Numbered from the stretch's first letter, positions 34,285-50,148 are shown. The stretch: DNA of 64,000 nt from Candidatus Poribacteria bacterium (GCA_965208325.1 OZ242326.1:854725-918724), one strand, 5' to 3'. Program-made: numbers and translations. Notes: generated by a model from the sequence alone, not told the origin.

Positions 34285-34351
34285 ACATCTCCTCTCCCGA
34301 CTACTACATAATCAACATTAAATCTTTCATCACGCTAAGCGAATTCAGGTA

Positions 34352-37237
34352 TTGGCAATGAGGAAATCGGTCACACCCGTCCCCAATCCCCAGCAACAGA
34401 AGGCGATTCGGACAACAGAAGGGCCGCTGCTCATTATTGCTGGTCCTGGATCTGGAAAGACCTTTACGCTTGTTGAGCGTATCAATCTCTTAATTTCGCA
34501 AAAGGGAATTCCGCCGGAATCGCTCTTCGTCGCAACTTTTACTGAAAAAGCCGCGGCCGAACTGATCAGTCGAATCTCACTAAAATTGGATTCCGCCAAA
34601 ATCACCGCCAATCTGAACGAGATGTACATTGGCACCTTCCACTCCATCTGTCTTCGATTTCTTGAGGAACACCGTAGATTTACCCGCCTGGCGCGCAACT
34701 TCACCTTATTAGATCAATTCGATCAGCAGTATTTTCTTTATCAGCGCTTGTCTGACTATCAGGCGATTGAGGGAAGTGAGCATATTTTGGATAATCCAAG
34801 AGCTACATGGTGGGGTAAGGCGGAAAATCTTATGAAATGGGTGAACAAGGTGAGCGAGGAGGCGCTTGCCCCGGAAGATTTGCTTGATGCCGACGAGCCT
34901 GAAGTTCAAGCGCTTGGACGCTGTTATCAACAGTATCAGGCACATCTCGAAGCCGAAAACTGCCTTGATTTTTCCACGATTCAAGTTGAGGCGTTGCGTC
35001 TGCTCGACCAATACCCGGAGGTACTTGACGAGATTCGCACTAAGATTCAGTATTTGATGATCGATGAGTTTCAGGACACCAACACCGTTCAAGAAATCAT
35101 CCTGTTCAAACTTGCCGAACCGAACTACAATCTCTGCGTTGTAGGTGACGATGACCAAGGACTTTACCGATTTCGGGGCGCGACGATACGTAACATTCTC
35201 CAATTCCCGCAGCGGTTCCCGCCGGGAGATTGCCAGCAAGTCAAACTCACGACCAACTACCGATCGCACCCGGATGTCATCGGTTTTTACAACGATTGGA
35301 TGGATAGCCTTGATTGGTCCGAGGACGGCAAAACTTTCCGCTATGAGAAAACAATTGTTGAAAACTCGGAACGAGAATTCACGGAGGTGCCGGCCGTGCT
35401 GAAGGTCTCAGGTGAATTAGACTCTGAGAACTGGCACGAGGAAGTCCTTGCGTTCCTTCGCCACCTAAAAGGCAACGGTTCATTGACGGATTGGAATCAG
35501 GTCGCATTCCTTTTTCGATCGGTGCGGAATGAGAAAGTCGTTGCACTCGCAGGCGCGTTGGAGGAAAACGGAATTCCCGTCTATTCCCCGCGATCTAATC
35601 TGTTCTTCGACCGGGCAGAAATTCGCCTCATGATCGGCGCGTTAATTTTCCTCTTCCCCCAATTTGAAAATGTTCGGAAGTGGAATAAAGACGCTTCGCT
35701 TGATATCTGGAACTATTACGATGACGACTGTTTTCGGGATTTTGCTGACGAACTCCGCAAGCCAGACAATAAGTCTATGTTGGCGTGGTGCAGAAGGCGA
35801 GCAAAAGCGCATCTCCACCTGATAGAGTCGACAGACTATGCCTTCTCTGGGCTGTTCTACGAATTGTTGCAGTTTCCACTATTCAGTCAATACCTTGGCG
35901 AAGCTACGCAAGGCGGAGCAATAGACACCCGTCCTGCCCGAAACTTGGCAATTTTATCCCAACTCCTCAGCAAGTATGAGTATCTGCATCACATCAACGT
36001 CTTAACGCCTGATTATCTGAACACGAATCTACGCAGGTTGTTCAATCGTTATTTTCGATTCCTTAAAGAGGGTGGGATTGAAGAATTCGAGGATGCGTCT
36101 GATTATGCGCCAACAGGCTGCGTCTCCTTCATGACGATTCATCAGTCTAAAGGGTTGGAATTTCCGGTTGTATTAGTAGGCTCAATGGAAGCCAGACCTT
36201 ACAAGCAACACACGGACCTTGATGCTGTGCTCCAGCGGAATTACTATAGAAAGCCGCCGTTTGAACCATTGGAGAATACCAAAAGCTATGACTTCTGGCG
36301 ACTTTTTTACACGGCATTTTCCCGAGCACAAAATCTACTAATTCTCACCTGTCAGGAACGAAAGGGGCGGTGGCCTGCTCCATCTGGATATCTCAGCGAT
36401 TCCTACGCTCAAACCTGCGCATGGCGGGACCCCGCATTTCAATCACAAAACCTCACACTTGAAACAATCAGGGAAGTATCTCTAAAGCATGAGTATTCAT
36501 TCACGTCCCATATCACCCTATATGAGAACTGCGCGCGGCAATACAAATTCTACCGCGACCTCCAGTTTGCCCCAATTCGGCGGAACCCAATCCTCTTCGG
36601 GGTCGTGGTACATCAGACTATTGAGGACATCCACAAAGCCGTTCTACGAGGCGAAGAAAACAGTGTCACTGATGAACAAATTTCGCGCTGGTTCAACGCC
36701 AACTATACTCACCTGTCTCGTCAAGAACGCCTTTATTTAAGCGCGGGCGGCCAAAATGCCGCCTTGGAACACGTCCTGAGATATGCTCACCGTGAGCGCA
36801 GAACATGGGATCGCCTTCGCGAAACAGAGGTCAAGGTTTCCGTTGTGAAGGACACCTACTTTTTAACCGGACATGTGGACTTAATCCGCGGCGAAGACGA
36901 GTCAATGGAAATTGTGGATTTTAAGTCGGAACGTAAACCTGACCTATTTGGCGAACGCGAGACGTTAGACCGCTACCGGCGTCAACTCGAAGTCTATGCC
37001 CACATTGTAGAAGGACGCACCGGGCACAAGATTAGTAGAATGCACCTCTACTACACAGGAGAGGACAATAGTAATCCTTATGTCAGTTTTGACAAGAATC
37101 CGCGCTCAATTAATCGCACGATGGCAGCCTTTGACGATGTCGTTGAGCGTATCGAAGCAAAAAATTTCGAGATATCGGGACGTCCGGAGAAACTGTGCAA
37201 GAATTGTGACATGAAGGCATATTGTGATGCGATATAG
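34352..37237 (+). CDS. UvrD/PcrA-like SF1 helicase fused to C-terminal Cas4/AddB-like PD-(D/E)xK nuclease with Fe-S Cys cluster
   Basis: Helicase motifs 'QQQKAIRTTEGPLLIIAGPGSGKTF' (Q/I), 'VGDDDQGLYRFRGA', 'TTNYRS', 'TIHQSKGLEFPVVLV'. C-terminal nuclease with 'YENCARQYKF', 'VDLIRGEDESMEIVDFKSER', 'QLEVYAHIV' and terminal 'CKNCDMKAYCD' (four Cys). Confidence 0.7.
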   Translation: MAMRKSVTPVPNPQQQKAIRTTEGPLLIIAGPGSGKTFTLVERINLLISQKGIPPESLFVATFTEKAAAELISRISLKLDSAKITANLNEMYIGTFHSICLRFLEEHRRFTRLARNFTLLDQFDQQYFLYQRLSDYQAIEGSEHILDNPRATWWGKAENLMKWVNKVSEEALAPEDLLDADEPEVQALGRCYQQYQAHLEAENCLDFSTIQVEALRLLDQYPEVLDEIRTKIQYLMIDEFQDTNTVQEIILFKLAEPNYNLCVVGDDDQGLYRFRGATIRNILQFPQRFPPGDCQQVKLTTNYRSHPDVIGFYNDWMDSLDWSEDGKTFRYEKTIVENSEREFTEVPAVLKVSGELDSENWHEEVLAFLRHLKGNGSLTDWNQVAFLFRSVRNEKVVALAGALEENGIPVYSPRSNLFFDRAEIRLMIGALIFLFPQFENVRKWNKDASLDIWNYYDDDCFRDFADELRKPDNKSMLAWCRRRAKAHLHLIESTDYAFSGLFYELLQFPLFSQYLGEATQGGAIDTRPARNLAILSQLLSKYEYLHHINVLTPDYLNTNLRRLFNRYFRFLKEGGIEEFEDASDYAPTGCVSFMTIHQSKGLEFPVVLVGSMEARPYKQHTDLDAVLQRNYYRKPPFEPLENTKSYDFWRLFYTAFSRAQNLLILTCQERKGRWPAPSGYLSDSYAQTCAWRDPAFQSQNLTLETIREVSLKHEYSFTSHITLYENCARQYKFYRDLQFAPIRRNPILFGVVVHQTIEDIHKAVLRGEENSVTDEQISRWFNANYTHLSRQERLYLSAGGQNAALEHVLRYAHRERRTWDRLRETEVKVSVVKDTYFLTGHVDLIRGEDESMEIVDFKSERKPDLFGERETLDRYRRQLEVYAHIVEGRTGHKISRMHLYYTGEDNSNPYVSFDKNPRSINRTMAAFDDVVERIEAKNFEISGRPEKLCKNCDMKAYCDAI

Positions 37238-37277
37238 CAAGAGATTCAAATCGACGCAAGACGCAAGGAGAAGATTC

Positions 37278-39194
37278 ATGGAAACACAATCCCATCTCAA
37301 AATTTTAGAACCTATTAATTCTGTTGAATCATACGAATTTGAGCCTATTCAGGGTTACCCCATGCTCAACTGGAAAGGTAAACGCCCTTTCCGATCCACA
37401 CAATACTATCCAGCCCAACTTAAAGAGACGTATGGTGAGGAAGTAGAGGGTTGGCAAAACAAAATATACTGGGGCGATAACTTGCAGGTAATGAGCCATT
37501 TACTTAAAACCTTTCGGGGCAGGATAAACTTGATTTACATTGATCCCCCGTTTGATTCAAAGGCAGACTACAAGAAGCAAATAGAACTTAAGGGAAAGAA
37601 AGTTGAGAACGATAAAAGTGCATTTGAAGAGAAACAATACACTGACATTTGGACGAATGATGAGTATTTACAATTCATGTATGAGCGATTAATCTTGATG
37701 AAAGAATTGTTGGCAGATGATGGGACGATATATGTTCATTCTGACTGGCGAATGAATAGTTACCTTCAATTGGTTTTAAATGAGGTGTTTGGGAAGAGTA
37801 ATTTTCTTAACTTGATAACATGGCGACGGCAAATAGTCCGCGGGATGAAAAAATACGCACGATTCATGCCATTCAGTTCGGATTACATTTATCTCTATGC
37901 AAAAGACAAAAGCAAAGCGATTTGGAACAAAATCGAAAAAGTTAATGCTATCTCATTGAAAAAGGCCGAACAAAAATATAAGAAAGATGATAAAGGATTC
38001 TTCCGAACTTCCGACCGCGGGACATACTCGGACGAGAGCATCATTCAACTCTATAAGGAAGGACGAATTCATGTCACGCACGGTGGAAAATTCCAGATAA
38101 AGGAGGGCAAGGTGTCGGTATCAGCCGGCAAAATTGGCATCAAATATTACCGCGAAACAGTTGGTGATAAAGTCCTTGAAAAAACGGTTTTTGATAATCT
38201 ATGGGATGATATATCTGGATTGGGTATTACTCCCCACGAATATCTTGATTACCCAACCCAAAAACCCGAAGCACTGCTCGAACGTATAATCAAAGCCTCG
38301 TCCAATCCCACCGACATCGTCTTGGACTGCTTCATGGGCAGCGGCACGACGCAAGCGGTCGCTATGAAACTTGGCCGTCGCTTCATTGGGGCAGACATCA
38401 ACCTCGGTGCCGTGGAAACTGCGACAAAGCGTCTCCTGATTGTTGCAGCATCGCTAAAGGAAAAAACGGCACAAAGGCGAATTGAAGAAACCCTAATCCA
38501 CTTTTCGGGATTTGAAGTGTATAACGTCAACCACTATGATGTATTCCGAAATCCCGTTGAGGCGAAAGACCTGTTGATAGAGGCATTAGAGATACAACCT
38601 CTGCCAAACGGCGGTATTTTCGATGGCGAAAAGGACGGGCGCATGGTGAAAATCATGCCAATCAATCGAATTTCAACCCGAGCAGACCTCAACGAACTAA
38701 TCGCGGGATTTAACTACCAAACATTTGAAAGGCGTCAGGAAGAAAATCCAGATGCTCCGGTCGAAAAGCTATTACTGGTCTGCATGGGCCACGAACCTGG
38801 CCTCGCCGCAGCACTGCAAAACGAAGTACCTCACAAACTTGACATAGAAATAATGGATGTTTTGCGCGATAAATCCCGACTAGAGTTCAAGCGTGAATCC
38901 GAAGCGAAGATTGTTCGTAACAACGGATACCTAATCATAGAGCAATTCTACCCGATGAACCTTCTTCAAAAGTTGAGCCTGATAGAGGAAAACGTCGCTG
39001 ATTGGCGCGAACTGGTGGAATCTGTAAAGGTTGACTTCAACTACGACGGCGGGGTGATGAACCCATTAGTGGTCGATCTGGCGAAAGAACATCAACTAGT
39101 TGAGGGCACTTACCCCATTCCAGAAGACGCGGGCACAATCCGAGTTAAAATCACCGATTTGCTGTCAGAATCTTTGGAAAAGACAGTGGAATAG
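37278..39194 (+). CDS. mod: Type III restriction-modification DNA methyltransferase (Mod), beta-class N6-adenine/N4-cytosine MTase
   Basis: 'IYWGDNLQVMSHLL...INLIYIDPPF' (motif IV DPPF) N-terminal, AdoMet motif I 'DCFMGSGTTQAVAMKLGRRFIGADIN' C-terminal (beta order). Shine-Dalgarno 'AAGGAG' 9 nt upstream of the ATG at 37278. The ORF's nominal start at 37224 overlaps the helicase gene. Confidence 0.75.
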   Translation: METQSHLKILEPINSVESYEFEPIQGYPMLNWKGKRPFRSTQYYPAQLKETYGEEVEGWQNKIYWGDNLQVMSHLLKTFRGRINLIYIDPPFDSKADYKKQIELKGKKVENDKSAFEEKQYTDIWTNDEYLQFMYERLILMKELLADDGTIYVHSDWRMNSYLQLVLNEVFGKSNFLNLITWRRQIVRGMKKYARFMPFSSDYIYLYAKDKSKAIWNKIEKVNAISLKKAEQKYKKDDKGFFRTSDRGTYSDESIIQLYKEGRIHVTHGGKFQIKEGKVSVSAGKIGIKYYRETVGDKVLEKTVFDNLWDDISGLGITPHEYLDYPTQKPEALLERIIKASSNPTDIVLDCFMGSGTTQAVAMKLGRRFIGADINLGAVETATKRLLIVAASLKEKTAQRRIEETLIHFSGFEVYNVNHYDVFRNPVEAKDLLIEALEIQPLPNGGIFDGEKDGRMVKIMPINRISTRADLNELIAGFNYQTFERRQEENPDAPVEKLLLVCMGHEPGLAAALQNEVPHKLDIEIMDVLRDKSRLEFKRESEAKIVRNNGYLIIEQFYPMNLLQKLSLIEENVADWRELVESVKVDFNYDGGVMNPLVVDLAKEHQLVEGTYPIPEDAGTIRVKITDLLSESLEKTVE

Positions 39195-39212
39195 CGACTT
39201 ATAGGGGAAAAA

Positions 39213-41816
39213 ATGGCACGAATTGCGCGAACACAGATTAATCTCGATTTCGCCTTCTTCACCTACCTACGCATCTTTTATACTGAGAACCGCGGGCGAA
39301 TTCGCAATCACTTTCGAGATCTATCTAAAAAATTCCTAGATTTCAACACCCCTGAATCAGGGGCGTTTTTGCGCGAACCGCAGTTTGAGGCGTTAGAGAT
39401 GTACATTTTCCTTAAGGAATATCTAGGTAACCGACACGTTCACGAGATTTTCACTGACTGGTACACAAAACAAAACGGGTTTGAAGGGCGGTCAACTCTT
39501 GGTATCGAACAGCTTGAACTGCTTGGAGAACTCAATACGACGCAATACGAGGCTGTATTCCGCTATATTAGAAAATCTGGAAATCGAAATTATGCGAATT
39601 ATATTTTTGCGCTTCCAATGGGTACGGGCAAGACGATTCTCATGGCAACCTGTATCTTCTACGAGTTTCTGCTCGCCAATAAATTTCCGAAAGATCCAAA
39701 ATATTGTCGTAATGCCCTTGTCTTCGCACCCGATCGAACGGTGTTACAGTCTCTCAAAGAGATTCAGACCTTCGACATGACAAAAGTTATACCGCATGAA
39801 TACTTCAATTTCCTTTCACGCCACATCCAATTCCACTTCCTTGAAGAAGCCGGAACTACACTCTCTACAATGGACCGCTCGCAATTCAACATTATCATCT
39901 CCAATGCGCAGAAGATAATACTCAAAAAGCAACACACTGAGAAAAGTGCCAGTGAACGCTTGTTTAAGAGCGGAGCACCGACTTACAAACCGGGAAGCGT
40001 CTACGACCAATTTTCAGGTCTCTACAATTTTGACACGCCCGAAGATGAGAACGAATTAACAACCAATCAGCGATTTCAGAAACTGACAAGGCTTGAACAA
40101 CTCGCAATCTTTGTCGACGAGGCACATCATGCGTTCGGCAGTAAACTGGCAAGGGACATGGGGCTTCAGAAGTCAAAGACCAGTCTGCGGCTTACCATTG
40201 ATGAACTTGCGGCAAGTTTGGAGCGTGCGGGAACGCGCGTCTGCGCCTGCTACAATTTCACGGGTACACCATACGTCGGGCAACAGGTCTTACCCGAAGT
40301 AGTTTACGGGTACGGGTTAAAAGAAGCAATTGACAAAGGATTCTTGAAAAAAGTTAGGCTTCATACCTACACCAATCCTAAAGACTCGGAGTTTGTGCGA
40401 CTGACGATTAAGGATTTCTGGGACAATCATCGTGGATTACGACATGAAGGGATGTTGCCGAAACTCGCACTATTTTCATCCACAATCGACGAGTTAAAGA
40501 ACGATCTTCGCCCCGCTGTTGAATCGGCGTTAAGCGAGTTTGGTGTGCCGCTCTCTAGCATCCTTGTTAATGTGGGAGATTCAAAGCTGACATCCAACGA
40601 TGAACTCCGCGAGTTTATTAACCTTGACACCCAATCATCCGAAAAACAGTTTATCTTGTTAGTCAATAAAGGAAAAGAAGGATGGAACTGCCGATCGCTG
40701 TTTGGCGTGGCACTTTACCGGAGACCGAAATCCAAAATTTTTGTTCTACAAGCCAGTATGCGATGCTTACGGCAGATTGGCGAAGACCAGCAAACTGGAC
40801 ACATTTATCTTTCCGCAGAGAATGCTCAGATTCTTGATGACGAGTTGCAGCAAAACTTCCGCGTGTCCGTCAATGAAATTCATAACTTCGGTGTTGAAAA
40901 ATTAAATTATAAGGTACGAGTTAACAAACCGCCCGTGAACGTGACGCTCAAACGCATCAGAAAGTTGCACCAGCTGGTAGAAAAGCAATCCCAGAACGGG
41001 CTGTGTTTGGAGCTCGATCAGATAGACACAGAAAAGTATCGCTTAATACACGAAGAAAGTGAAGGGCTGGCGGCTCCTCACCCGATTCTAACGGAGGACC
41101 TATCCGAATACAAGTTAAAGCGAGATTTCAGTCAGTTGACGCTGTGTGCGGAAATTTCTCGCTACCTAAATCGATCTCCGCTGAAAATTGAGGAAATGCT
41201 GACGAATACAGAAGAAGGGATGCAAAGGATTCTGTCGAATGTCAATGAGTTTAATGAACTACTTTACGACTGGATAATTCCACGAATTTTTAAGGCATTA
41301 TATGATTTGCAGGAATTTGAAAATCACGAATCAGAAGAAATTGAATTGGTTAAGGAGCCCGAGGAGGGGTACTACACTGTTCGGGCGACGCCTAACCTTG
41401 TTTTTACAGATAACAACACTGAAGTAATACAGCACCGGCGAAAGAGTTTTCACTTGGACACCTACGCTTTTGACTCCAACCCTGAAAAGGCTTTATTTTG
41501 GTCACTGCTGCGGGCTGGAAAAGTTAAAAAAGTGTATTTCACAGGAATGCTGACGCATGGGCAATCAGATTTTTACATCCAATACATTGACCCAGAATCG
41601 CATGCAGTCAGGCGATATTATCCCGATTTCCTCATGCGGAAGGATGACGACTCATGGGTCATCGTCGAAGTAAAGGGTGACAATATGGTTGACGACCAGA
41701 TAGTTCAGGCAAAAGCTGCGGCTACCTATCAGCGAGCAAATGCAAGTCGCATGACATACAAAATCATTAAGGGCAGCGATGCTCAGGCGGGAAGATATAG
41801 TTCATTGTTGGAATAG
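39213..41816 (+). CDS. res: Type III restriction enzyme Res subunit (SF2 DEAH helicase plus C-terminal PD-(D/E)xK endonuclease)
   Basis: Walker A 'FALPMGTGKTILMA', DEAH 'IFVDEAHHAF', C-terminal nuclease 'YYPDFLMRKDDDSWVIVEVKGD'. 867 aa, immediately downstream of Mod. Confidence 0.7.
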   Translation: MARIARTQINLDFAFFTYLRIFYTENRGRIRNHFRDLSKKFLDFNTPESGAFLREPQFEALEMYIFLKEYLGNRHVHEIFTDWYTKQNGFEGRSTLGIEQLELLGELNTTQYEAVFRYIRKSGNRNYANYIFALPMGTGKTILMATCIFYEFLLANKFPKDPKYCRNALVFAPDRTVLQSLKEIQTFDMTKVIPHEYFNFLSRHIQFHFLEEAGTTLSTMDRSQFNIIISNAQKIILKKQHTEKSASERLFKSGAPTYKPGSVYDQFSGLYNFDTPEDENELTTNQRFQKLTRLEQLAIFVDEAHHAFGSKLARDMGLQKSKTSLRLTIDELAASLERAGTRVCACYNFTGTPYVGQQVLPEVVYGYGLKEAIDKGFLKKVRLHTYTNPKDSEFVRLTIKDFWDNHRGLRHEGMLPKLALFSSTIDELKNDLRPAVESALSEFGVPLSSILVNVGDSKLTSNDELREFINLDTQSSEKQFILLVNKGKEGWNCRSLFGVALYRRPKSKIFVLQASMRCLRQIGEDQQTGHIYLSAENAQILDDELQQNFRVSVNEIHNFGVEKLNYKVRVNKPPVNVTLKRIRKLHQLVEKQSQNGLCLELDQIDTEKYRLIHEESEGLAAPHPILTEDLSEYKLKRDFSQLTLCAEISRYLNRSPLKIEEMLTNTEEGMQRILSNVNEFNELLYDWIIPRIFKALYDLQEFENHESEEIELVKEPEEGYYTVRATPNLVFTDNNTEVIQHRRKSFHLDTYAFDSNPEKALFWSLLRAGKVKKVYFTGMLTHGQSDFYIQYIDPESHAVRRYYPDFLMRKDDDSWVIVEVKGDNMVDDQIVQAKAAATYQRANASRMTYKIIKGSDAQAGRYSSLLE

Positions 41817-41855
41817 GGCATAATCGCAAACATTAAGAGTTCGGGGTCGTTCTTT

Positions 41856-42698
41856 TTGGCAATGAGAAAGATCAAAACAGGACTACGCTGGCTCTGTGGG
41901 AAGGTCGGCAAACTTAGTTTTGAACACATACCCCCGGAAAAAGCATTCAACGACCAGAAAGTTTTCCATGACTGCGTTATCAACATCCTTGAAAACCAAA
42001 AGCTTAAAACATCTCAACGAGGTGTTGGGGACCATACGCTGTGTATTACCTGCAACAATAATACAGGTACAATGTATGGGTCTGCTTTTGTAGAATTTTG
42101 CAAACGTGCTGCTGACGTGCTGTCTCAGGCGTACGGTTATCCTACGCTGCATTACGAGTATAGTACCTACCCCTTGCGGGTCATTAAACAAATCGTAACG
42201 ATGTTCTTTTCGACCAATAGCCCAGAATGGCGGAAATCATGTCCTGATTTGGAGAAATTCGTATTGGATAAGCAGGATAGATACCTGCCTGAAAGATACG
42301 GCATCTTCCTCTATTACAATATTGAAGGTACGCTGCTGAAGCACACAGGCATACAACGTGTGCTTAAATTCGACCCCGACTGGATTGCTTCACCCAACCT
42401 GTCAGAATTCAGTGAAATCGTGCACCCTCCTTTCGGGTATTTGATGACAACAGACTCGGACAAACCAGATGATAGGCTGTTTGACATTTCTTGGTTCAGC
42501 AATTTCACCTTTGATGACTATCGGCGAGTGTATCTAAAAATTCCCGTGTTACCCATTTACACAATGTATGCGGGGCAATATCCGAGTCGAAAAGAAATAG
42601 ACGAAATTCGACGCAAAAATCCGGCACGAGGTCTCCAAGATTACCTTGAAGACATCGTGAGTCAGTCTGTCAACAGGAAAGGCGAACAATCCAAATAG
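41856..42698 (+). CDS. hypothetical protein with N-terminal HNH-like motif
   Basis: 'LCGKVGKLSFEHIPPEKAFND...HTLCITCNNNTG' resembles the HNH beta-beta-alpha-Me core (E-H, N, CxxC). The remaining roughly 200 aa are unassigned. Confidence 0.35.
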   Translation: MAMRKIKTGLRWLCGKVGKLSFEHIPPEKAFNDQKVFHDCVINILENQKLKTSQRGVGDHTLCITCNNNTGTMYGSAFVEFCKRAADVLSQAYGYPTLHYEYSTYPLRVIKQIVTMFFSTNSPEWRKSCPDLEKFVLDKQDRYLPERYGIFLYYNIEGTLLKHTGIQRVLKFDPDWIASPNLSEFSEIVHPPFGYLMTTDSDKPDDRLFDISWFSNFTFDDYRRVYLKIPVLPIYTMYAGQYPSRKEIDEIRRKNPARGLQDYLEDIVSQSVNRKGEQSK

Positions 42699-43049
42699 CA
42701 TTTTCTAAGCATTAATTACGAATTGCTAAGTAGAAAATATATGTATCAATTGGAGGTAATCTGTAAAATCCGTCAAATCTTGTAAACTATTGTAAACTTG
42801 AATGATGCGACAAATGCGCGAGAAAATCGCTACATACGCTTAAGCGATTGCGACCGGCGTTTGAAGCTGCGGCTGAAGGATACAGTAACCAACTTAAATT
42901 AAATAGTAAATGGATACGGTGACTCTCAACACCCGGCAACGCCATTCGATCGCTCGTTAATCCATTCATTTGGTTGTAGTTAAAGTCACTATTCCCACGC
43001 GTTCCCTTCATCTTAACGCCCGCTTTAATTTAGCAAGGGAGAATACGAT

Positions 43050-43496
43050 ATGACAAAGCGAATTTGGGTACTTCTTGGAGTTGGAATTATCGCTATTGTC
43101 TTCATATTAATTGCTGTATTTGCAGTTCGATCTTGCGGACAGCCCCCGGCCGAGACTCCGGTCCCCGACGATGATGCAACATCAGCCGCTCCTAAGCCCA
43201 CACGCGCGATAAAACCTGCGCCCGCGTATGTATCCGTTTCAATCAACGCCGTTCCGTGGGCAGAGGTTTTCATAAGGACTCCTGGAAGCGCTCGATTCGT
43301 AAAACCGGGGACTAAATACTTTAATATCAAGCCTCCTTCCAATGGAAAGGATGCCCACGTCACTCCGATTCGCGGAAAATTGAAAGTGCCGGCCGGCACA
43401 GCGATAAAGTTGGTGTATGATGGACGAGAGAAAATTTTCCCTTACGAGTCTTGGAAGACAAGGCGTTCAATCTCACACGATTTTCTGGGGCAATAA
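43050..43496 (+). CDS. hypothetical membrane-anchored protein
   Basis: N-terminal TM 'IWVLLGVGIIAIVFILIAVFAV', then a Pro/Ala-rich linker. 148 aa. Confidence 0.45.
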   Translation: MTKRIWVLLGVGIIAIVFILIAVFAVRSCGQPPAETPVPDDDATSAAPKPTRAIKPAPAYVSVSINAVPWAEVFIRTPGSARFVKPGTKYFNIKPPSNGKDAHVTPIRGKLKVPAGTAIKLVYDGREKIFPYESWKTRRSISHDFLGQ

Positions 43497-43542
43497 CCTA
43501 TCATTAAATAGAGTCGCTGGTAGATTTTTGGTGATACTTAAA

Positions 43543-45897
43543 ATGAGATTTTTCGTCATTTTTACGAAATTAATCCTTTTGACGGTCTGGAATTCGTCAG
43601 TCGCCATGGCCCTTACATCGGAAGAGATTGCCAAGAAAGCGTTGGACGCTACTGTACTTCTTGTCATGGTCGATGTCAATGGCAAGGTCGAATCACAAGG
43701 CAGCGGGTTTTTTGTACAATCAAATCGCATTGTGACCAATTTCCACGTTATTGATGGTTTCACTAGAGGCGACGCAAAACCTGTTGGTCGACAGACGGTG
43801 TACCCGATTGAGCATGTCTCGGCGGTGGACAGGAAGCACAATTTGGCAATTTTACAGGTGTCGGCACCCGGAATTGAACCACTTTCCATAGGGAACAGTG
43901 CGTCAGTTGCGGTTGAAGATCAGATTTATGTCGTGGGCAATCCATTAGGCGTCCTTGAGGGCACATTCTCTGAAGGGATTATCAGTGCGATCCGAGAAGT
44001 GGATTCGGTAAAGCTGTTTGAGGTTACTGCACCCATCTCTGAGGGTAACAGCGGCGGTCCAGTGCTAAACGCCCAAGGCGAAGTAATTGGAGTTTCACAC
44101 GGAGCGGTCCCTGCAGGGCGGAATCTAAATTTTGCGATCCCGTCAATCCACATTCAAGTGCTCGCCAACAAATTGGGCAAAGAACTGCTAGAAAAGGGTA
44201 TTCTGCAATATGAAGCTACCCAATTCAATGAGGCAATAAAATCATTGCGATTAGCCCTAACCGAGCTTAGCGATTCGAAACTGCGAGCCGTTGCCCACCT
44301 TTACCTTGGATGCTCAAAACGAGGATATGGAGAATCTGATTACCCCGTTAGCGCGGCGTTTGTAGAGGCGCTTCGACACAATCCTGAACAGATGTTGCCG
44401 CCTAGAATAGGAGAGGACCACCCGGTTTTTAAACCGATGCTCGAAAAAGTACGGTCTGAGTCAACTGGGAAATTGACGGTTAACTGCTCACTCCCCGAAA
44501 CTGAAATCTGGATTGACGGGGAGGTAATTGACAGGAAAATGATTGGCAGCGGCAATGCCGCCGTCCGACTATTTGTGGGCGGCTACACCGCGGAGGGGGT
44601 TTTTGAAGACGTGTACCGAAAGGCCTCATTCTCTATTGTACCTGATGGGCATGAGATTCTTTATCTAGATATGCCGCCCGTATTAAGGCATGAACCCCCA
44701 TCTAGAGTTTCCGTCGGTGAGGTTATCTCTCTTTCTTTGGATATAATTAGCCGCGATAAGGCGAAGCAGGTTCAGATCCACTACACCATCTTCGACAGAA
44801 ACGGGGAAGAATTGGTCCGGGGGATGCAGGACATGCTTTTGTGGAAGGAACAGCCCATACCGTCTACGTGGATTCACCGCTCGGATTTGCCATCGCAAAC
44901 CACCGTAGGAAGAATTTCATATTTCATCATGGCGGATGAAGGAAGGTCTCCTACTAGTCAGTTTCATGAAATCGCAATTGTTGACGAGAATCTCCCAATA
45001 ATTGACCTGCTAGAGCCCCCTGAAACTGCCGAATTCAGGGTCAACCAATCCATTTCGGTTAGAGCAAAAGTAACTGATAACACCGCTATTGATGAGGTTC
45101 GTATTCATTATGCTTTCTCGAGTTCAGGCAATTCAAGACCTTCCGAGACAATTCCGTCTGAACCACTGGTGAAGGAAACCTCTGGCGACGTATATGCCGG
45201 GTTAATCCCGCCGCAAAAGAGCGGTCCCGGCTACATCTGGTATTATCTGACCGCAATTGATGAAGAAAATAACCAGCGCCGCTCCGATTTCAGACGAATA
45301 AGTATAGTAAAAATTCCCGATGAGCGGCCCATGATGCCGGCGATAATTAAACGAAGCGCCCCGGTACGCCTCCCACATCAGAGTGTATGGGCAAGCCTCG
45401 GGTTGTGGAACGATATTCTCAAATTACATCGACCTGATGCTTTTTCGTGGGAAAGAGGAAATGTAATCAGTCTCGGTTACTTGAGTGAAGGCAGGGGCTA
45501 TCCGACACTTGGCGTAAAACTGGATTATTCGTATCAGATTCGCGAAAACATAAATGCGACAATAGAATTGGGGCCTGCAATTAGAAACGCTGCAATCACA
45601 GTAGCATTACTGGGCGGTGTTGCACGGTACAAAAAAATTTACGATGAATCGAATCCAATTACACCTTTTCTCGGTGCGAGTTTAAGGCTTTACCCAATGG
45701 ATACCGTCACAATTGACATCGCAAGTTCGATTAATCTTAGGTCGTTTGACACCACTTCCATACAATTCCAGCACTACGAAATGGGCCTGCGGATTTACCT
45801 AACGCCAACTCTGAACCTCAAGTTAAGTTACGGAAATTGGTACATAAGAGAGCACGGAAACAAAAGCGTTCAGATTGGACTGGGGATTAAATTCTGA
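43543..45897 (+). CDS. trypsin-like (S1) serine protease with large C-terminal region ending in a putative outer-membrane beta-barrel
   Basis: Signal peptide 'MRFFVIFTKLILLTVWNSSVAMA'. Protease motifs 'GSGFFVQSNRIVTNFHVIDG' (His), 'NLAILQVS' (Asp region), 'GNSGGPVLN' (Ser). C-terminal amphipathic beta strands ending '...QIGLGIKF' (terminal Phe). The ORF's upstream in-frame start at 43417 is rejected for lacking a signal peptide. Confidence 0.65.
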   Translation: MRFFVIFTKLILLTVWNSSVAMALTSEEIAKKALDATVLLVMVDVNGKVESQGSGFFVQSNRIVTNFHVIDGFTRGDAKPVGRQTVYPIEHVSAVDRKHNLAILQVSAPGIEPLSIGNSASVAVEDQIYVVGNPLGVLEGTFSEGIISAIREVDSVKLFEVTAPISEGNSGGPVLNAQGEVIGVSHGAVPAGRNLNFAIPSIHIQVLANKLGKELLEKGILQYEATQFNEAIKSLRLALTELSDSKLRAVAHLYLGCSKRGYGESDYPVSAAFVEALRHNPEQMLPPRIGEDHPVFKPMLEKVRSESTGKLTVNCSLPETEIWIDGEVIDRKMIGSGNAAVRLFVGGYTAEGVFEDVYRKASFSIVPDGHEILYLDMPPVLRHEPPSRVSVGEVISLSLDIISRDKAKQVQIHYTIFDRNGEELVRGMQDMLLWKEQPIPSTWIHRSDLPSQTTVGRISYFIMADEGRSPTSQFHEIAIVDENLPIIDLLEPPETAEFRVNQSISVRAKVTDNTAIDEVRIHYAFSSSGNSRPSETIPSEPLVKETSGDVYAGLIPPQKSGPGYIWYYLTAIDEENNQRRSDFRRISIVKIPDERPMMPAIIKRSAPVRLPHQSVWASLGLWNDILKLHRPDAFSWERGNVISLGYLSEGRGYPTLGVKLDYSYQIRENINATIELGPAIRNAAITVALLGGVARYKKIYDESNPITPFLGASLRLYPMDTVTIDIASSINLRSFDTTSIQFQHYEMGLRIYLTPTLNLKLSYGNWYIREHGNKSVQIGLGIKF

Positions 45898-46062
45898 GCG
45901 TTCATACCTTTATTGTGACTACACTTATTATCCCCCAAATATCAATCTAAACACGTGCACGACGACACCGATATTTTTCCAACTTTACATCATCGCATTT
46001 CTCGCCCTTAACGGCGGATGCAAAGACGCAAGATGTGTCTTGGGTTGGCAACTCTTTGAATA

Positions 46063-46551
46063 TTGGAGATTCATGTGCTTCAATCAACGTTCAACCAACG
46101 CCTAGCGTCGTGCATTATTGTTGCATTGTTGATTTTTTTGAACATAGGTTGCGCTACAATTACGCGGGGTAGTAAACAAGAGATATCAATATCTAGTGAA
46201 CCACCGGGAGCATCTGTAACCATCGATAATCAGCTTTATGGGGTAACCCCTACGGCGGTGCAACTTGCTCGTTCCAAACCCCATTCGGTGTTCCTTCAAC
46301 TTGAAGGTTACGAACCCGTTTTAATACAGATTCAGTCACAACCCGATGCTGCTGTCGCGGGAAACTGTCTGATGTGTTGTTGTTTGGGTGTACCTGGCAT
46401 TGTAGCCTTTGCAGTAGACATAATAACGGGTTCCGGTCGAACGTTAACGCCTGAAACAATTCACGTAGTTTTAATCCCCTTTGATGTTATTCTACCACCA
46501 GAAGTTGGGCAAAAATGGTATGTACGTCGTGCCTCTAGCGGCGAAAGATAG
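46063..46551 (+). CDS. PEGA-domain lipoprotein
   Basis: Lipobox 'FLNIGC'. PEGA motif 'ISSEPPGASVTIDNQLYGVTP'. Cys-rich hydrophobic C-terminus. Confidence 0.55.
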   Translation: MEIHVLQSTFNQRLASCIIVALLIFLNIGCATITRGSKQEISISSEPPGASVTIDNQLYGVTPTAVQLARSKPHSVFLQLEGYEPVLIQIQSQPDAAVAGNCLMCCCLGVPGIVAFAVDIITGSGRTLTPETIHVVLIPFDVILPPEVGQKWYVRRASSGER

Positions 46552-46831
46552 ATGGGAGTATAAGCACCAGTGTCCAATAGAGTATAGCGTTACGACGAAA
46601 ATTACGGTTCCGACATGTCCAACTACATAATCGGCTATTCAAATAAAAAACCTGACGAGCGGCAATTAAATTTTTAGATCGATTTCAAATGCCTACTCCA
46701 GTGAGGAATTTCTAAACTTTACGTCTGAATTGCCTCGCGAATTCTTTCAACATCAGCTTCAAACAAGAAGACTGAGACCCTGACATTCGAACTAAGTCAT
46801 TGGCGAGCCTAGTTAGGTATTGGACTGTATT

Positions 46832-47443
46832 CTAATAAAACACTACACCAATTGCAAAACTGTCAATTGCCCCGGTAAACGAAAAAGCATACGTACCCGA
46901 AATTATCAAAGATGGAGAAACCGTTAGTTCTAACCCCATCGCCGCATTTACGTGGCCTTCATCGATTTCCAACTCATCATTCAGAAACTCCCAGTTGTAA
47001 TTGTATCCCACACCGAAAAAAGGCGCAAATTCCATTGGGCTTGATTCGGATTTCAGTCGTTTTAATAGACCGGCATAGCCGCCTAAGCCAAGTCCATAGA
47101 TGTGTAGGTCACTGGCAAGGTTTTGATATGAGCCCCCTCCCCCAATCGTGACAAACGAATCGAATCCCGTAGTGCCAAACGGAGCGATGTGCATAAAGTC
47201 TAGTGAGGCTGCGGGAGAGGGCGGAACATCTAATTCATCGAAAAACCGAATCGCACCGGTAAACGATGCTTTTGCGTTTGCGTCAATGCCATATTCGAGA
47301 TTGGCCCAAATGGCACGATTCATTTCAGTAAAGGCTAATCCAAGTCCAAATGTGCTTTGTGTGGGCGCCAACCGTTTAAAGCTTGCAAAAGCGCTTGTGG
47401 CACACACATAAAAGCAAATTGCAATAATGAAGATTTTTTTCAT
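46832..47443 (-). CDS. small outer-membrane beta-barrel protein (OmpA-like / porin family 3 type)
   Basis: Signal peptide 'MKKIFIIAICFYVCATSAFA', alternating hydrophobic beta pattern, Gly/aromatic-rich, C-terminal '...GVVFY'. The start is taken at the internal ATG 47443. Confidence 0.5.
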   Translation of the reverse strand: MKKIFIIAICFYVCATSAFASFKRLAPTQSTFGLGLAFTEMNRAIWANLEYGIDANAKASFTGAIRFFDELDVPPSPAASLDFMHIAPFGTTGFDSFVTIGGGGSYQNLASDLHIYGLGLGGYAGLLKRLKSESSPMEFAPFFGVGYNYNWEFLNDELEIDEGHVNAAMGLELTVSPSLIISGTYAFSFTGAIDSFAIGVVFY

Positions 47444-47595
47444 GGTAACTGGGTTCTCCATAAAACCAAGTGAGTTGCTAGATTTTTCTAGAACTTCATG
47501 ATGTAATTTTGTTGTCCGCAGTTGTAATGATTGCGGAATGTCAGATAGCGGCACGTATCAGGCCATCCCATGTAATGCGGATTTGGGAAAAAGGG

Positions 47596-47925
47596 TTATT
47601 CACCGTATACCGTTATAGTATAGGTGGCCACAATTCCTAGAACACTCTGTGAGTGTTGCTCAACATGGTGGATCTTGGTGATACCACCATTCCTAGCCGC
47701 CGTTTGGATACTTGCATCCCCTATTGCGACCCATCCAAGAATGGATTGTGCGAATGCCGTTCCTGATTTGAGCGGTTTGACATTGTTATCTATACTTGAA
47801 GGAATTGGTGCCTTTACATCGGAGTATAGAAAACCCGTAACGGGTTGTTTAGCCTGTGCAGCACATCCTGTCAGATACATAACCAGCAATAACGGGATTG
47901 TAACAGTAACAACAAATTTTGACAT
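47596..47925 (-). CDS. TRL-like small lipoprotein
   Basis: Lipobox 'MYLTGC'. 109 aa. 'GFLYSDVKAP...GDASIQTAARNGGITKIHHVE' resembles the TRL-domain family. Confidence 0.4.
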   Translation of the reverse strand: MSKFVVTVTIPLLLVMYLTGCAAQAKQPVTGFLYSDVKAPIPSSIDNNVKPLKSGTAFAQSILGWVAIGDASIQTAARNGGITKIHHVEQHSQSVLGIVATYTITVYGE

Positions 47926-48550
47926 GGTAAACTCCTTTTAATTGAGCAAAATAAAATCATCACCTATAATCATAGCCGGCATCGCTGTCCTTTATCACTT
48001 AATGCCGAACTTGTAGCGGCTTTGACCCCGCCCCCAATCTCAGAAGACGGCTTTCGCGATGCCTAGCAATCGGAATCACTAAACCCATTTGGAATTTAGC
48101 AGCAAATAACAGACAGAAATCGATGAACGCGTATCGTTTGGCAAGGAAATGATTTGCGCCGTACATCGGCATTTCAATCTTAGATTGACGCTCTTGTTAT
48201 TCTTCATTAAGTAATGATTTATGATACCACAAGAAACCTTTCTCGGCAACGCCAAAAATCTGCGAACGCCGGTTGACGGATACTCCTGTCCTAGTATAAA
48301 ATCTTAAATTTTCACAAATTGTATTTTACCGCCACCACGCATTATATCCGATACTGTCAGTAACGCTTTTTTTAATGAGAAAACTCATAGTTGAGAATCT
48401 ACCGCCGGATGCCACATAGAAACTGAAAATCATGTAAACTTCTTTAAACTTTGTAAACTTGATCGAGAGAAAATTTCATCAAAATTTACGTCGCTACAAC
48501 TTGACATACTTCGAGGTTTTGTCGACATCTCTTTATAAGGTTGTGGCATT

Positions 48551-48916
48551 ATGTTAAGAATGATGCCGATAACCTTACCTGATAACCAATGGGAAAAAAT
48601 ATATGAGTTTCTTCTGGGTTGTTCCAACATCTTTGTCCGCAACGAAGCCGAAACCCGACGATTCGTCGAAGCTGTCCTGTGGGTGGCTCGCAGCGGTGCG
48701 CAATGGAGATTATTGCCTACTGCTTATGGCAAGTGGAACTCCATTTACAAGCGGTTTAGTAACTGGTGCGACATAGGAATCTTCGAACATATGCACCGCC
48801 ACTTTGCCTCCGACCCAGATATGGCGTCGCTTATTATTGACTCGACCATTTGCCGGGCTCACCCATGCGCACCTGGCGCCTCAAAAAAAACGGGGGTGCC
48901 GAAAACCAAGCGTTAG
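48551..48916 (+). CDS. IS5-family transposase OrfA
   Basis: 'MLRMMPITLPDNQWEKIYEFL...AQWRLLPTAYGKWNSIYKRFSNWCDIGIFE', a conserved IS5/IS427 OrfA. Confidence 0.75.
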   Translation: MLRMMPITLPDNQWEKIYEFLLGCSNIFVRNEAETRRFVEAVLWVARSGAQWRLLPTAYGKWNSIYKRFSNWCDIGIFEHMHRHFASDPDMASLIIDSTICRAHPCAPGASKKTGVPKTKR

Positions 48917-49230
48917 GACGTTCTCGCGGCGGCTTCAGCACCAAGATTCACATCACAGTTGACGCACTAGGTAATCCGCTTAGACTCCAGCTAACCCCCG
49001 GTCAGAGACACGACATAGCTGAAGCCGAATCGTTGATAGTTGGATATAACAGCCAGCATGTAATTGGAGACAAAGGATATGACTCAGTTGAATTTATCAC
49101 CGTTATTGAAGCCAATGGTGCCATTCCGGTGATACCACCACGACGTAATCGTGGTGCTCAAAGAACATTCGACCCCCATTTATACAAAGAGAGACATCTA
49201 GTCGAATGTTTCATCAAAAAAAAATACTAA
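48850..49230 (+). CDS. IS5-family transposase OrfB (DDE domain), expressed by frameshift from OrfA
   Basis: 'GFSTKIHITVDALGNPLRLQLTPGQRHD...VIGDKGYDS', a DDE transposase motif. Confidence 0.7.
   Translation: MPGSPMRTWRLKKNGGAENQALGRSRGGFSTKIHITVDALGNPLRLQLTPGQRHDIAEAESLIVGYNSQHVIGDKGYDSVEFITVIEANGAIPVIPPRRNRGAQRTFDPHLYKERHLVECFIKKKY
48883..48890 (+). promoter_or_regulatory. A8 slippery run - candidate programmed -1 frameshift site in IS5 transposase
   Basis: 'TCAAAAAAAACGGGGG' lies inside the OrfA/OrfB overlap. Confidence 0.5.
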
Positions 49231-49614
49231 TCCACGCCACATCACCAACAGCGATTCACCATCCGTGGCAACGCCGCATGATTATGTGCCCACGTAATCA
49301 TAGCCCATCGTTTAATCATACAAATCACAGTTCAGACAGTCTTCTCAATAACGCAACACTACACCCGCCGCGGCAACAATATGTAGGTTTCATTTTGTTT
49401 TTCGAGATTCCCACCGAGCGCCAAAGAATGCCCTGAATCAGAATCCAAAACAACACTGTCCCAAAATTTCCCCTTCATACCCACCTGCAACGGCACAAAC
49501 CCTTGCCCCGTCCGCATCCAAGCGATGGATTTTTCAACCCTTTCCGCCAAAAACCCCGATAACCTCGCACTCCGCCTTGACAATCGCTAAATCTCAAAGT
49601 ATACTACAATTATT

Positions 49615-50148
49615 ATGCCAACTACAAATGTCCAATTCGGCGAATCGGACATTGACTTCACCATTGAGCGTTTTGCTTATTATGGTGAGGGAAAAGCTAA
49701 TGCGAAGCGCGTAATTCGTGATGTATGTGATTATTTTGGGATTGAAGACAATGCTAGCAATCATAAATTATTATCCAATAAAATTCGTACCTTTAATCCC
49801 AACCGAAAAGACTGCGCAGAGCATTATCGGAGTCGCTATCTCATGAAACGAAATCAGGTTCTTACACACAGACACGAACCCAACGGCATTTTTTCACAAC
49901 AGCTACATGCACTTTTACTCGTTGCATTCAAAGTTCTGTCTGAAGAGATGACGCCGCCCCTCGCACTCAAGCTCATTGAAGCCGAAATCCGATTCGCAAT
50001 TGAAAACAAACACATAAATGTTCAGGAAAGAATTGAACGACAATGTTTAGCCGCCGACACGGGAGATAGTTCATTTCTAAATGGAAAGACGGAGCCGGAT
50101 TTACGGAAACCACAGTCGGTTTCTGAAAATCCATCGCGCATACCATAG
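49615..50148 (+). CDS. hypothetical protein; could be a frameshifted N-terminal part of the downstream terminase
   Basis: 177 aa with no recognisable motif. Overlaps the terminase ORF by 68 nt. Confidence 0.3.
   Translation: MPTTNVQFGESDIDFTIERFAYYGEGKANAKRVIRDVCDYFGIEDNASNHKLLSNKIRTFNPNRKDCAEHYRSRYLMKRNQVLTHRHEPNGIFSQQLHALLLVAFKVLSEEMTPPLALKLIEAEIRFAIENKHINVQERIERQCLAADTGDSSFLNGKTEPDLRKPQSVSENPSRIP

Follow-up and report, generated by a model that had tools for sequence, protein, structure and literature searches.

A further UvrD-Cas4/Type III restriction-modification locus, from Candidatus Poribacteria, and the linkage of its three genes

Described systems closest to the locus

The survey of Hudaiberdiev et al. 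(2017, BMC Evol Biol 17:232; PMC5704561) found that Type III mod and res genes are the commonest neighbourhood of the UvrD-Cas4 fusion, described copies that stand alone and others in a second context, that of Dcm/Vsr, and predicted an ancillary defence role for the fusion protein. The locus analysed here lies in a 64,000-nucleotide stretch of a Candidatus Poribacteria genome ("the window"; GCA_965208325.1, OZ242326.1:854725-918724) and has the same organization, in which the gene for an SF1 UvrD-like helicase with a pfam12705 Cas4-like nuclease, here called HelNuc, is immediately 5' of Type III mod and res genes, with WYL/HTH regulators in some loci (we found WYL regulators in six surveyed loci). 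There is no structural difference between the two, and the window locus is a further member of that system, from Candidatus Poribacteria. The gene architecture has been known, computationally, since 2017, and the suggestion made in a sequence-only reading of the window, that it may be a new restriction-modification (R-M)-associated module, is not upheld. The 2017 study contains no linkage statistics, recognition-domain variability analysis or experiments, of which the first two are added here; our literature search found no experimental work on a UvrD-Cas4/Type III locus or on the family.

The Type III systems EcoP15I and EcoPI (PDB 4zcf) share with the locus a homologous beta-class Mod with a variable recognition domain, and a Res in which an SF2 DEAH ATPase is followed by a C-terminal PD-(D/E)xK nuclease. 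The Eco86II and BspHIV m4C Type III systems (Murray et al. 2021, PMC8259958) have a third, "helicase-like ATPase" gene directly 5' of mod in more than 500 genomes; it is dispensable for methylation and in-vitro cleavage, its function was not known to the authors and, compared with HelNuc by description, it differs in being SF2-like and in having no nuclease motif. Bad, a DNA2-like Fe-S helicase-nuclease of Geobacillus that its authors propose to be a novel restriction enzyme subunit (PMC7430649), likewise joins an Fe-S RecB-family nuclease to an SF1 helicase and is encoded beside a Type III-like Mod, but its motor is SF1B and its nuclease N-terminal (DNA2 order), whereas in HelNuc the motor is of the SF1A UvrD-like kind and the nuclease is C-terminal (RecB/AddA order). 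The two fusions are of independent origin. The UvrD-like SF1A motor and RecB-family nuclease of HelNuc are also those of AddAB, RecBCD and AdnAB, and its four-Cys signature matches that of AddB, whose Fe-S cluster is required for DNA-end binding; unlike these enzymes HelNuc is one polypeptide with no partner gene, is mobile and R-M-linked, and scores far under their equivalog cutoffs (see below).

Among named defence systems, Gabija resembles the locus in that PADLOC GajB models match the helicase part of HelNuc (at values as low as 2.2e-60) and in that a helicase works with a nuclease in defence; it differs in that these matches are confined to the helicase part (residues 12-315 for the best-scoring model), that the nuclease of HelNuc is a Cas4-like one within the same polypeptide, and that the locus includes a methyltransferase. 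Gabija was rejected, there being no GajA match among the PADLOC matches listed for the four proteins of the locus (the best 25 each for HelNuc and Mod; Res matched REase_III alone) and no OLD/TOPRIM-type Pfam match in the neighbouring ORFs. Hma, defined by a helicase, the m5C methylase HmaB and an ATPase (PMC8565338), was rejected because Mod is an N6_N4_Mtase and not a C5 methylase, and no Hma model is among the PADLOC matches listed. MANTIS/Gao_RL, defined by the AAA+ ATPase MtsA, the co-regulator MtsB, a methyltransferase and a helicase-nuclease (bioRxiv 10.64898/2026.09.23.753747), was rejected because no AAA+ or MtsB-like gene is present at the locus. The PADLOC v2 models do not call the cassette as any named system, and the sequence-only reading was right to place it outside the named architectures.

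The genes of the locus and the island they open

Four co-directional, tightly spaced genes had been reported between positions 34352 and 42698, and all four ORFs are indeed present there in one direction, with spacings of -14 to 40 nt. HelNuc (34352..37237, + strand) is a 100% match to database protein P0001, which is 959 aa long, and its true start is therefore probably the ATG at 34358. The single polypeptide has the N-terminal UvrD-like SF1 helicase and C-terminal pfam12705 Cas4-like four-Cys nuclease that define UvrD-Cas4, as the sequence-only reading had recognized from its motifs: Pfam matches are UvrD-helicase (PF00580, 4.8e-75), UvrD_C (3.7e-18), PDDEXK_1 (PF12705, 2.6e-22, spanning aa 719-959) and Cas_Cas4 (PF01930, 2.4e-5). 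The helicase carries the Walker A motif GPGSGKT and a DEFQD motif, and the Cas4/RecB-type PD-(D/E)xK nuclease domain (aa 719-961; 36506..37234, + strand), delimited by the PDDEXK_1 match and the conserved motifs, has the nuclease residues D843, D856-x-K858 and Q878..Y882 and the predicted Fe-S cysteines C727 and C949-x2-C952-x5-C958; helicase, nuclease and Cys motifs are 97-100% conserved in 75 orthologues. The top PADLOC matches of the nuclease segment are Cas4 models (3e-13).

The next gene encodes Mod (37224..39194, + strand), a beta-class N6/N4 amino-methyltransferase of the Type III kind that matches Pfam N6_N4_Mtase (1.5e-47), PADLOC MTase_III (2.7e-55) and the EcoP15I Mod structure 4zcf_A (5.9e-19). 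Its DPPF motif (residues 107-110) precedes FxGxG (370-374), in the beta-class order earlier read from the sequence, and both motifs are conserved in orthologues; DPPF cannot tell m6A from m4C (PMC8259958). Mod may start at GTG 37224, in which case this longest ORF overlaps HelNuc by 14 nt, or at ATG 37278, which leaves a 40-nt gap; residues 1-25 are gapped and weakly conserved in orthologues. Between the two motifs is a hypervariable target-recognition region, about aa 200-325 (37821..38198, + strand), delimited from the ortholog identity profile, where 64 orthologues are only 11-19% identical, with many gaps, while identity on either side is 60-80%. L159, the closest relative, has no nucleotide match to 37793-38249 and is colinear with the remainder at 76-80%, and the E. 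coli strains AH21 and VG888 differ from one another in the same pattern. Cassettes that are nearly identical elsewhere differ by exchange of the Mod recognition domain.

Res (39213..41816, + strand) begins 18 nt after Mod. It has an SF2 DEAH ATPase (Pfam ResIII, 3e-9; score 37.5 bits, cutoff 22.5) followed by a C-terminal Tn7_TnsA-like_N PD-(D/E)xK domain (Pfam, 3.4e-5), and the GTGKT, DEAH, TGTP and PD..ExK motifs are all 100% conserved in orthologues. Matches to known families are weaker: 2.6e-22 to the NCBIfam BPTD_3080 restriction endonuclease, under the model cutoff, only 2.6e-4 to PADLOC REase_III, an hhalign probability of 85% (E 5.8e-6) to a canonical REase_III partner, and no match in a PDB sequence search. 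The description of Mod and Res as a canonical Type III pair stands for Mod and for the motif layout of Res, but by its sequence Res appears to be a divergent Type III-like family, distant from characterised Type III Res proteins.

The cassette is the opening of a low-GC3 island of about 16 kb (34285..50080, unstranded), whose left edge falls exactly at HelNuc. GC3 is 0.36-0.53 inside it, 0.60-0.67 in the upstream metabolic genes and 0.57-0.64 in the genes beyond 50081. By Pfam analysis of the neighbours, its cargo is the cassette, a fourth gene, P4 (see below), and genes for a 148-aa predicted membrane protein, an 826-aa Trypsin_2 protein and a PEGA-domain protein, with several unannotated ORFs.

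Linkage, co-inheritance and mobility of the three genes

Of the 70 genome loci that have 5 kb or more of downstream sequence, 67 show the order HelNuc-Mod-Res (56-76% identity); these span Poribacteria, cyanobacteria, Chloroflexota, alpha-, beta- and gamma-proteobacteria and Bacillota. In the reciprocal test HelNuc is present on all 14 plasmids that carry a close full-length Res. This co-occurrence survey, which the sequence-only reading had called for, shows that the link between HelNuc and the Type III pair is non-random. Among loci, HelNuc and Mod have a median gap of -4 nt, and Mod and Res one of -8 nt, overlaps that suggest translational coupling. The matrix of pairwise identities for HelNuc correlates with that for Res at r = 0.977 (Mantel test, 0 of 999 permutations as high); for Mod the correlation is no more than about 0.4, owing to the shuffling of its recognition domain.

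The same three genes are found on mobile elements. They lie within a transposon on conjugative plasmids of Nitrosomonas eutropha C91 and, on an Enterococcus poxtA plasmid, next to IS1216 and further IS elements; in both cases the IS elements enclose a minimal cargo of these three genes. In E. coli the cassette is present in 3 of 5426 genomes, in integrase- and IS-flanked islands, and no DNA similarity to these triads was found beyond those three strains; in locus L160 it adjoins a CD-NTase/Cap15 (CBASS-type) pair. The conserved unit is the three genes HelNuc-Mod-Res, which moves between phyla, plasmids and defence islands.

A possible role for the helicase-nuclease

We lean, with modest confidence, towards the view that this is a mobile three-gene R-M cassette in which HelNuc turns Mod/Res cuts into DNA destruction. 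If Mod and Res behave like EcoP15I, a Mod dimer would methylate a short asymmetric site on one of its strands and load Res, which would slide using ATP as a switch and cut when two inverted unmethylated sites communicate. The Fe-S nuclease domain of HelNuc would then bind the resulting DNA ends, as in AddB and Cas4, and its SF1A motor would unwind them 3'-5' with degradation of the DNA, in the manner of Fe-S RecB-family nucleases. A single, repairable Type III cut would so become irreversible destruction that has no need of host RecBCD/AddAB, enzymes that phages commonly inhibit. The linkage and its reciprocity, the overlapping genes, co-inheritance, mobility and modularity, the 97-100% motif conservation and the prediction of PMC5704561 all favour this view. 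Against it, the HelNuc-Res co-divergence (r = 0.98) is also compatible with a physical three-subunit complex, solo HelNuc genes exist (L006 and an Annamia plasmid), and Eco86II cleavage in vitro with the extra ATPase omitted (PMC8259958) fits an accessory role but says nothing for end resection. The cleavage rules are assumed, since Res appears to be only distantly related to the characterised enzymes.

It is possible, but we put it forward only tentatively, that HelNuc is a functional third subunit that makes the Type III single-cutter a RecBCD-independent processive shredder, a distinct three-component R-M subtype in which the co-divergence with Res would reflect a physical complex. Rather unlikely, in our judgement, is the further step that HelNuc is the obligatory third subunit of a distinct restriction class, unwinding and degrading DNA after Mod recognition with Res as a loader or second motor and not the sole cutter. 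The co-divergence (r = 0.977), the possible translational coupling, the divergent Res with its TnsA-like nuclease and no PDB sequence relative, and the analogous proposal of the Bad authors (PMC7430649) all suit an obligatory subunit, but HelNucs of the same clade are paired with unrelated, canonical Type III Mod/Res proteins. This is so for a Poribacteria HelNuc (L005) that is 70% identical to that of the window, and more distant HelNucs of Bacillus and Priestia plasmids (41-45% identity) are paired with other canonical Type III Mod/Res families; these pairings argue that HelNuc has a generic DNA product as its substrate and does not dock on one particular Res. The solo copies also speak against an obligatory subunit, as does the fully conserved Res PD..ExK motif, because of which Res probably cuts DNA itself.

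Two other roles are improbable. HelNuc could be an independent single-gene defence or repair protein, near the R-M pair merely through the clustering of defence genes, which would explain the solo genes of L006 and the Annamia plasmid and the stand-alone copies and Dcm/Vsr context of PMC5704561; however, order, strand and overlapping junctions are constant in the 67 of 70 loci, the association is reciprocal (14/14 plasmids), the three genes are the minimal cargo between IS elements, and HelNuc and Res are inherited together. It is just as doubtful that HelNuc protects the host, either by processing or repairing self-inflicted Type III breaks (restriction alleviation) or by helping methylation to become established in a new host. 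Type III systems do leave one daughter duplex transiently unmethylated, the cassette is often transferred to naive hosts, and RecB-family helicase-nucleases normally feed recombinational repair, a role suggested by analogy in PMC5704561; but there is no evident Chi-recognition partner or RecA-loading element, and the extra ATPase of Eco86II/BspHIV, which may be of another family than HelNuc, is dispensable for methylation (PMC8259958).

The sequence-only reading had joined P4, a 280-aa protein (41856..42698, + strand), to the other three in a four-gene composite in which an HNH-like protein would act with HelNuc, Mod and Res. P4 does lie only 39 nt past Res on the same strand, and it follows Res in L159 as well, but there it is disrupted, L159 is the only relative in which it accompanies the triad, and it is absent from all 80 survey genome loci; its approximately 167 homologues stand alone in unrelated contexts. 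The HNH-like N-terminus that had been claimed for it is visible only as a family-level Zn-ribbon/HNH-like motif (CxxC..EH..N..CxxCN), whose first, Zn-ligand Cys is replaced by R11 in the window copy. P4 has no match in Pfam (including HNH at E<=0.01), PADLOC or NCBIfam, hhalign gave no match to an HNH protein, and its whole-chain AF2 model (pLDDT 86) has no PDB fold match. With P4 missing from 80/80 loci and lacking a Pfam or fold match, the four-gene composite is unsupported and very improbable: P4 is an unrelated, orphan-family neighbour gained in this lineage, outside the conserved unit. Separately from the cassette, and as tentatively as the three-component subtype above, P4 may represent a new nuclease family whose fold is absent from the PDB.

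That HelNuc is a housekeeping AddA/AdnB/RecB-type recombination helicase at a syntenic position, the outcome that the sequence-only reading had named as fatal to its idea, is almost certainly wrong: it shares their layout (SF1A helicase and C-terminal RecB-family nuclease) and has weak NCBIfam AddA and RecB matches, but these reach only 171 bits against a cutoff of 708 and 110 against 696, no partner subunit gene is adjacent, its flanks vary among relatives, its GC3 is unlike that of the flanking core genes, its distribution is patchy with 56-63% identity to copies in distant phyla and on plasmids and two copies in one genome (L001, L004), and its cassette lies on conjugative plasmids, in IS-flanked and defence islands and here in a low-GC3 island.

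The window locus adds no new kind of system, and its value is as a well-preserved further example, together with the linkage statistics. The cassette is widespread: many phyla have it, as do a few E. coli strains, and it is carried by conjugative and by resistance plasmids. It is absent from the defence-system libraries that have been tested. A role for a dedicated helicase-nuclease in Type III restriction would bear on how restriction can be irreversible when phages block RecBCD, and also on the reason for the third ATPase genes that are found with hundreds of Type III systems.

Genes and domains of the locus

All four open reading frames that a sequence-only reading had described at 34352–42698, and had taken together as a candidate composite defence island, are present in the window. 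The first (34352–37237) encodes HelNuc, a 961-aa protein whose description as a UvrD helicase with a C-terminal Cas4-like nuclease is borne out by Pfam matches to UvrD-helicase (4.8e-75), UvrD_C, PDDEXK_1 (2.6e-22) and Cas_Cas4 (2.4e-5), and by its C-terminal 272 residues, whose best PADLOC matches are Cas4 models (3e-13). The second (37224–39194) encodes the methyltransferase Mod, which matches N6_N4_Mtase (1.5e-47) and the EcoP15I Mod structure 4zcf_A (5.9e-19); DPPF lies ahead of FxGxG, the order of the beta class to which it had been assigned. The third encodes the restriction subunit Res (39213–41816), with a ResIII domain over the Pfam cutoff and a C-terminal TnsA-like PD-(D/E)xK domain, and the fourth encodes the 280-aa protein P4 (41856–42698), which gave no match in Pfam, PADLOC and NCBIfam scans. 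The window contains no tRNA gene and no Rfam family, and promoter and terminator scans of 34000–43200 found sites no more numerous than in shuffled sequence. The HelNuc (34352–34369) and P4 (41856–41873) genes share the opening TTGGCAATGAG, peptide MAMRK; the 11-mer common to the two starts is probably due to chance, and in both genes the internal ATG is more likely to be the start codon than the first one.

Motif conservation was computed across 64–75 orthologues. The helicase Walker A, DExQD and motifs IV to VI of HelNuc, its nuclease D843, DxK and QxxxY, its four Fe-S signature cysteines, the DPPF and FxGxG of Mod, and the GTGKT, DEAH, TGTP and PD..ExK of Res are all 97–100% conserved, and from these sequences all three proteins look like active enzymes. 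Mod residues about 200–325, which lie between conserved halves, are 11–19% identical with many gaps, and Mod looks sequence-specific. The HelNuc and Res proteins of E. coli AH21 and VG888-46E9 are 95% and 96.6% identical, respectively, and the central portions of their Mod proteins are not alignable. The closest relative, L159, has the same FAH-HelNuc-Mod-Res order (FAH, a metabolic gene product upstream of HelNuc, is 89% identical) and is colinear with the window at 76–80% nucleotide identity, save at window positions 37793–38249. These two pairs show natural exchange of the putative Mod recognition region.

The Mod and Res genes had been read as a canonical Type III pair. The domain plan of Res agrees with this, and the word canonical does not hold for it, since PADLOC REase_III models match it weakly and neither a single-sequence nor a profile search of the PDB with Res gave a match. 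A Res profile aligned with a canonical REase_III, which accompanies a distant HelNuc on a B. cereus plasmid, with 85% probability from motif II to motif VI. PGAP names members of the family "TnsA endonuclease N-terminal domain-containing protein" or "DEAD/DEAH box helicase family protein". On sequence grounds Res is Type III-like, a term that claims the domain plan and stops short of close homology. The TnsA-like domain was also considered for a Tn7-like role in transposition, which was rejected; the cassette has no conserved TnsB/C-type neighbours, and plasmid cassettes travel as cargo.

Linkage of HelNuc with Mod and Res

A scan of one genome per species yielded 80 loci with HelNuc relatives (56–76% identity) in Poribacteria, cyanobacteria, Chloroflexota, alpha-, beta- and gamma-proteobacteria and Bacillota. 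Neighbours were called by tblastn and ORF clustering. Of the 70 loci in which 5 kb or more follows HelNuc, 67 have Mod and Res of the same families directly 3' of it, and median gaps are -4 nt (HelNuc-Mod) and -8 nt (Mod-Res). The exceptions are L005, where HelNuc adjoins a different, canonical Type III pair (TypeIII_RM_meth Mod and ResIII Res), L015, where a Mu-like transposase interrupts the cassette, and L006, a solo HelNuc. In plasmids the association is reciprocal, HelNuc being present on each of the 14 that encode a close full-length Res. The proposed coupling of HelNuc to Type III genes is real. Pairwise identities of HelNuc and Res are correlated at r = 0.977, a value reached by 0 of 999 Mantel permutations; the corresponding correlation for Mod is only about 0.4.

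P4 had been proposed as a fourth member of the composite, and this did not survive the survey. It is absent from all 80 loci, follows Res only in L159, and its homologues stand alone in unrelated contexts (one adjoins a DDE transposase, another a C5 methylase); P4 is therefore a lineage-specific neighbour, outside the cassette architecture. Its family has about 167 members, no Pfam domain, and a CxxC..EH..N..CxxCN motif, whose first Cys is replaced by Arg in the window copy. In L159 (8479–9648) the homologue breaks off beyond residue 112, and the stretch between Res and P4 together with the P4 start (window 41826–41970) is repeated at that contig's end, which suggests insertion or partial duplication.

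Just upstream of HelNuc, 31 of the 80 loci encode a divergent ~1100-aa protein with Sacsin-like GHKL and C-terminal NOV_C (DUF3883) domains (for example L066 6343–9636, minus strand), which may be a fourth cassette partner in proteobacteria, and six encode a WYL-domain regulator. HerA-like pairs, integrases, a CHAT protease-like protein, an HNH protein and a Shedu-type nuclease fused to a GHKL ATPase are found near the cassette at other loci; its surroundings are shared with other defence-type genes. The window contains none of these neighbours. Genes are also inserted within the cassette (L071 11466–13661 and 15618–18023; L011 12911–16966), namely those for a CHAT protease-like protein in the HelNuc-Mod gap, an 801-aa HNH protein in the Mod-Res gap and a 1351-aa M14-peptidase-like protein. 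Some Poribacteria HelNuc homologues (P0045, P0088 and P0112, 1183–1251 aa; also those of L003, L005 and L006) have an N-terminal extension of roughly 220–290 aa with no Pfam match, which the window HelNuc lacks.

Genomic setting and mobility

GC3, at 0.60–0.67 across the metabolic genes that end with FAH, falls to 0.53 at HelNuc, and is 0.36–0.49 in the ORFs from Mod to about 50.1 kb. This delimits a ~16 kb low-GC3 island (34285–50080; 0.36–0.53 versus 0.57–0.67 in the flanks) that begins exactly at HelNuc; beyond P4 it encodes a predicted membrane protein of 148 aa, a Trypsin_2 protein of 826 aa and a protein with a PEGA domain, and it has several ORFs without a Pfam match, including 46832–47554 (minus strand) and 49615–50148. 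At its right edge a 604-aa ORF (50081–51895) has a weak, below-cutoff DEAD/DEAH helicase match (1.5e-4) and a GC3 of 0.64, the core-genome level. A metagenome scan for an empty site with the FAH protein found only relatives 29–67% identical whose flanks are not shared, so the island boundaries are not confirmed by it.

Elsewhere the cassette lies inside a transposon on Nitrosomonas eutropha C91 conjugative plasmids and adjoins IS1216 and further IS elements on a poxtA plasmid of Enterococcus faecium. Of 5426 complete E. coli genomes only 3 have it, in islands with integrase and IS elements at their flanks. The AH21 island sits at tRNA-Sec; E. coli AH21 (L096) and VG888-46E9 (L095), with their 7.3-kb cassettes, could be used for experiments as they are. 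In the Poribacteria relative L160, CD-NTase and Cap15-type effector genes (17557–19121) directly follow the triad, with which these CBASS-type genes form a defence island. The 14 matches in viral contigs are mostly at contig edges, so phage carriage is not shown. The possibility that HelNuc is a housekeeping AddA/AdnB ortholog at syntenic positions was rejected because it falls far short of the NCBIfam cutoffs for AddA, RecB, UvrD and PcrA, its settings are mobile, one genome carries it twice (L001 and L004), and GC3 drops at its gene.

Known systems and proposed mechanism

Hudaiberdiev et al. (2017; PMC5704561) found the UvrD-Cas4 fusion to be monophyletic, its commonest neighbourhood being Type III Mod and Res, at times with WYL/HTH regulators, and named a second context with Dcm/Vsr; they predicted an ancillary defence role. 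The triad is thus already described computationally and is not a new module, so that of the sequence-only reading as a whole the link between HelNuc and Type III genes stands, and the novelty of the architecture and the membership of the fourth gene do not. Our literature search met the term UvrD-Cas4 in that paper only, and found no experiments on the UvrD-Cas4/Type III architecture. Murray et al. (2021; PMC8259958) reported that Eco86II, BspHIV and more than 500 genomes have, 5' of mod, a third gene for a "helicase-like ATPase"; that ATPase is dispensable for methylation and in-vitro cleavage, and is characterised as SF2 without a nuclease motif. Our DNA searches of E. coli genomes, meant to place that ATPase inside or outside the UvrD-Cas4 family, matched three triad-bearing strains only, and the strains named there were not among them. 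Bad, a DNA2-like helicase-nuclease, is encoded beside a Type III-like Mod, and a place in a novel restriction enzyme has been proposed for it (PMC7430649). Gabija, Hma and MANTIS were rejected as the identity of the locus; Hma (m5C methylase) and MANTIS (AAA+ ATPase and MtsB) differ from the triad in composition.

If the triad works as EcoP15I does, Mod would act as a dimer that hemimethylates an asymmetric site and loads Res, which would cut once two unmethylated inverted sites communicate. The UvrD-type motor and Fe-S RecB-family nuclease suggest that HelNuc acts at DNA ends; AddB needs its Fe-S cluster to bind such ends. A serious rival is that HelNuc, Mod and Res form an obligate three-subunit enzyme, as the co-divergence of HelNuc with Res would suggest. 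HelNucs closely related to the window copy pair with unrelated Type III families, which favours a generic product, DNA ends, over docking on a specific Res. We therefore favour, as an inference, processive degradation of the cleaved DNA by HelNuc; restriction would then be irreversible and would need neither RecBCD nor AddAB.
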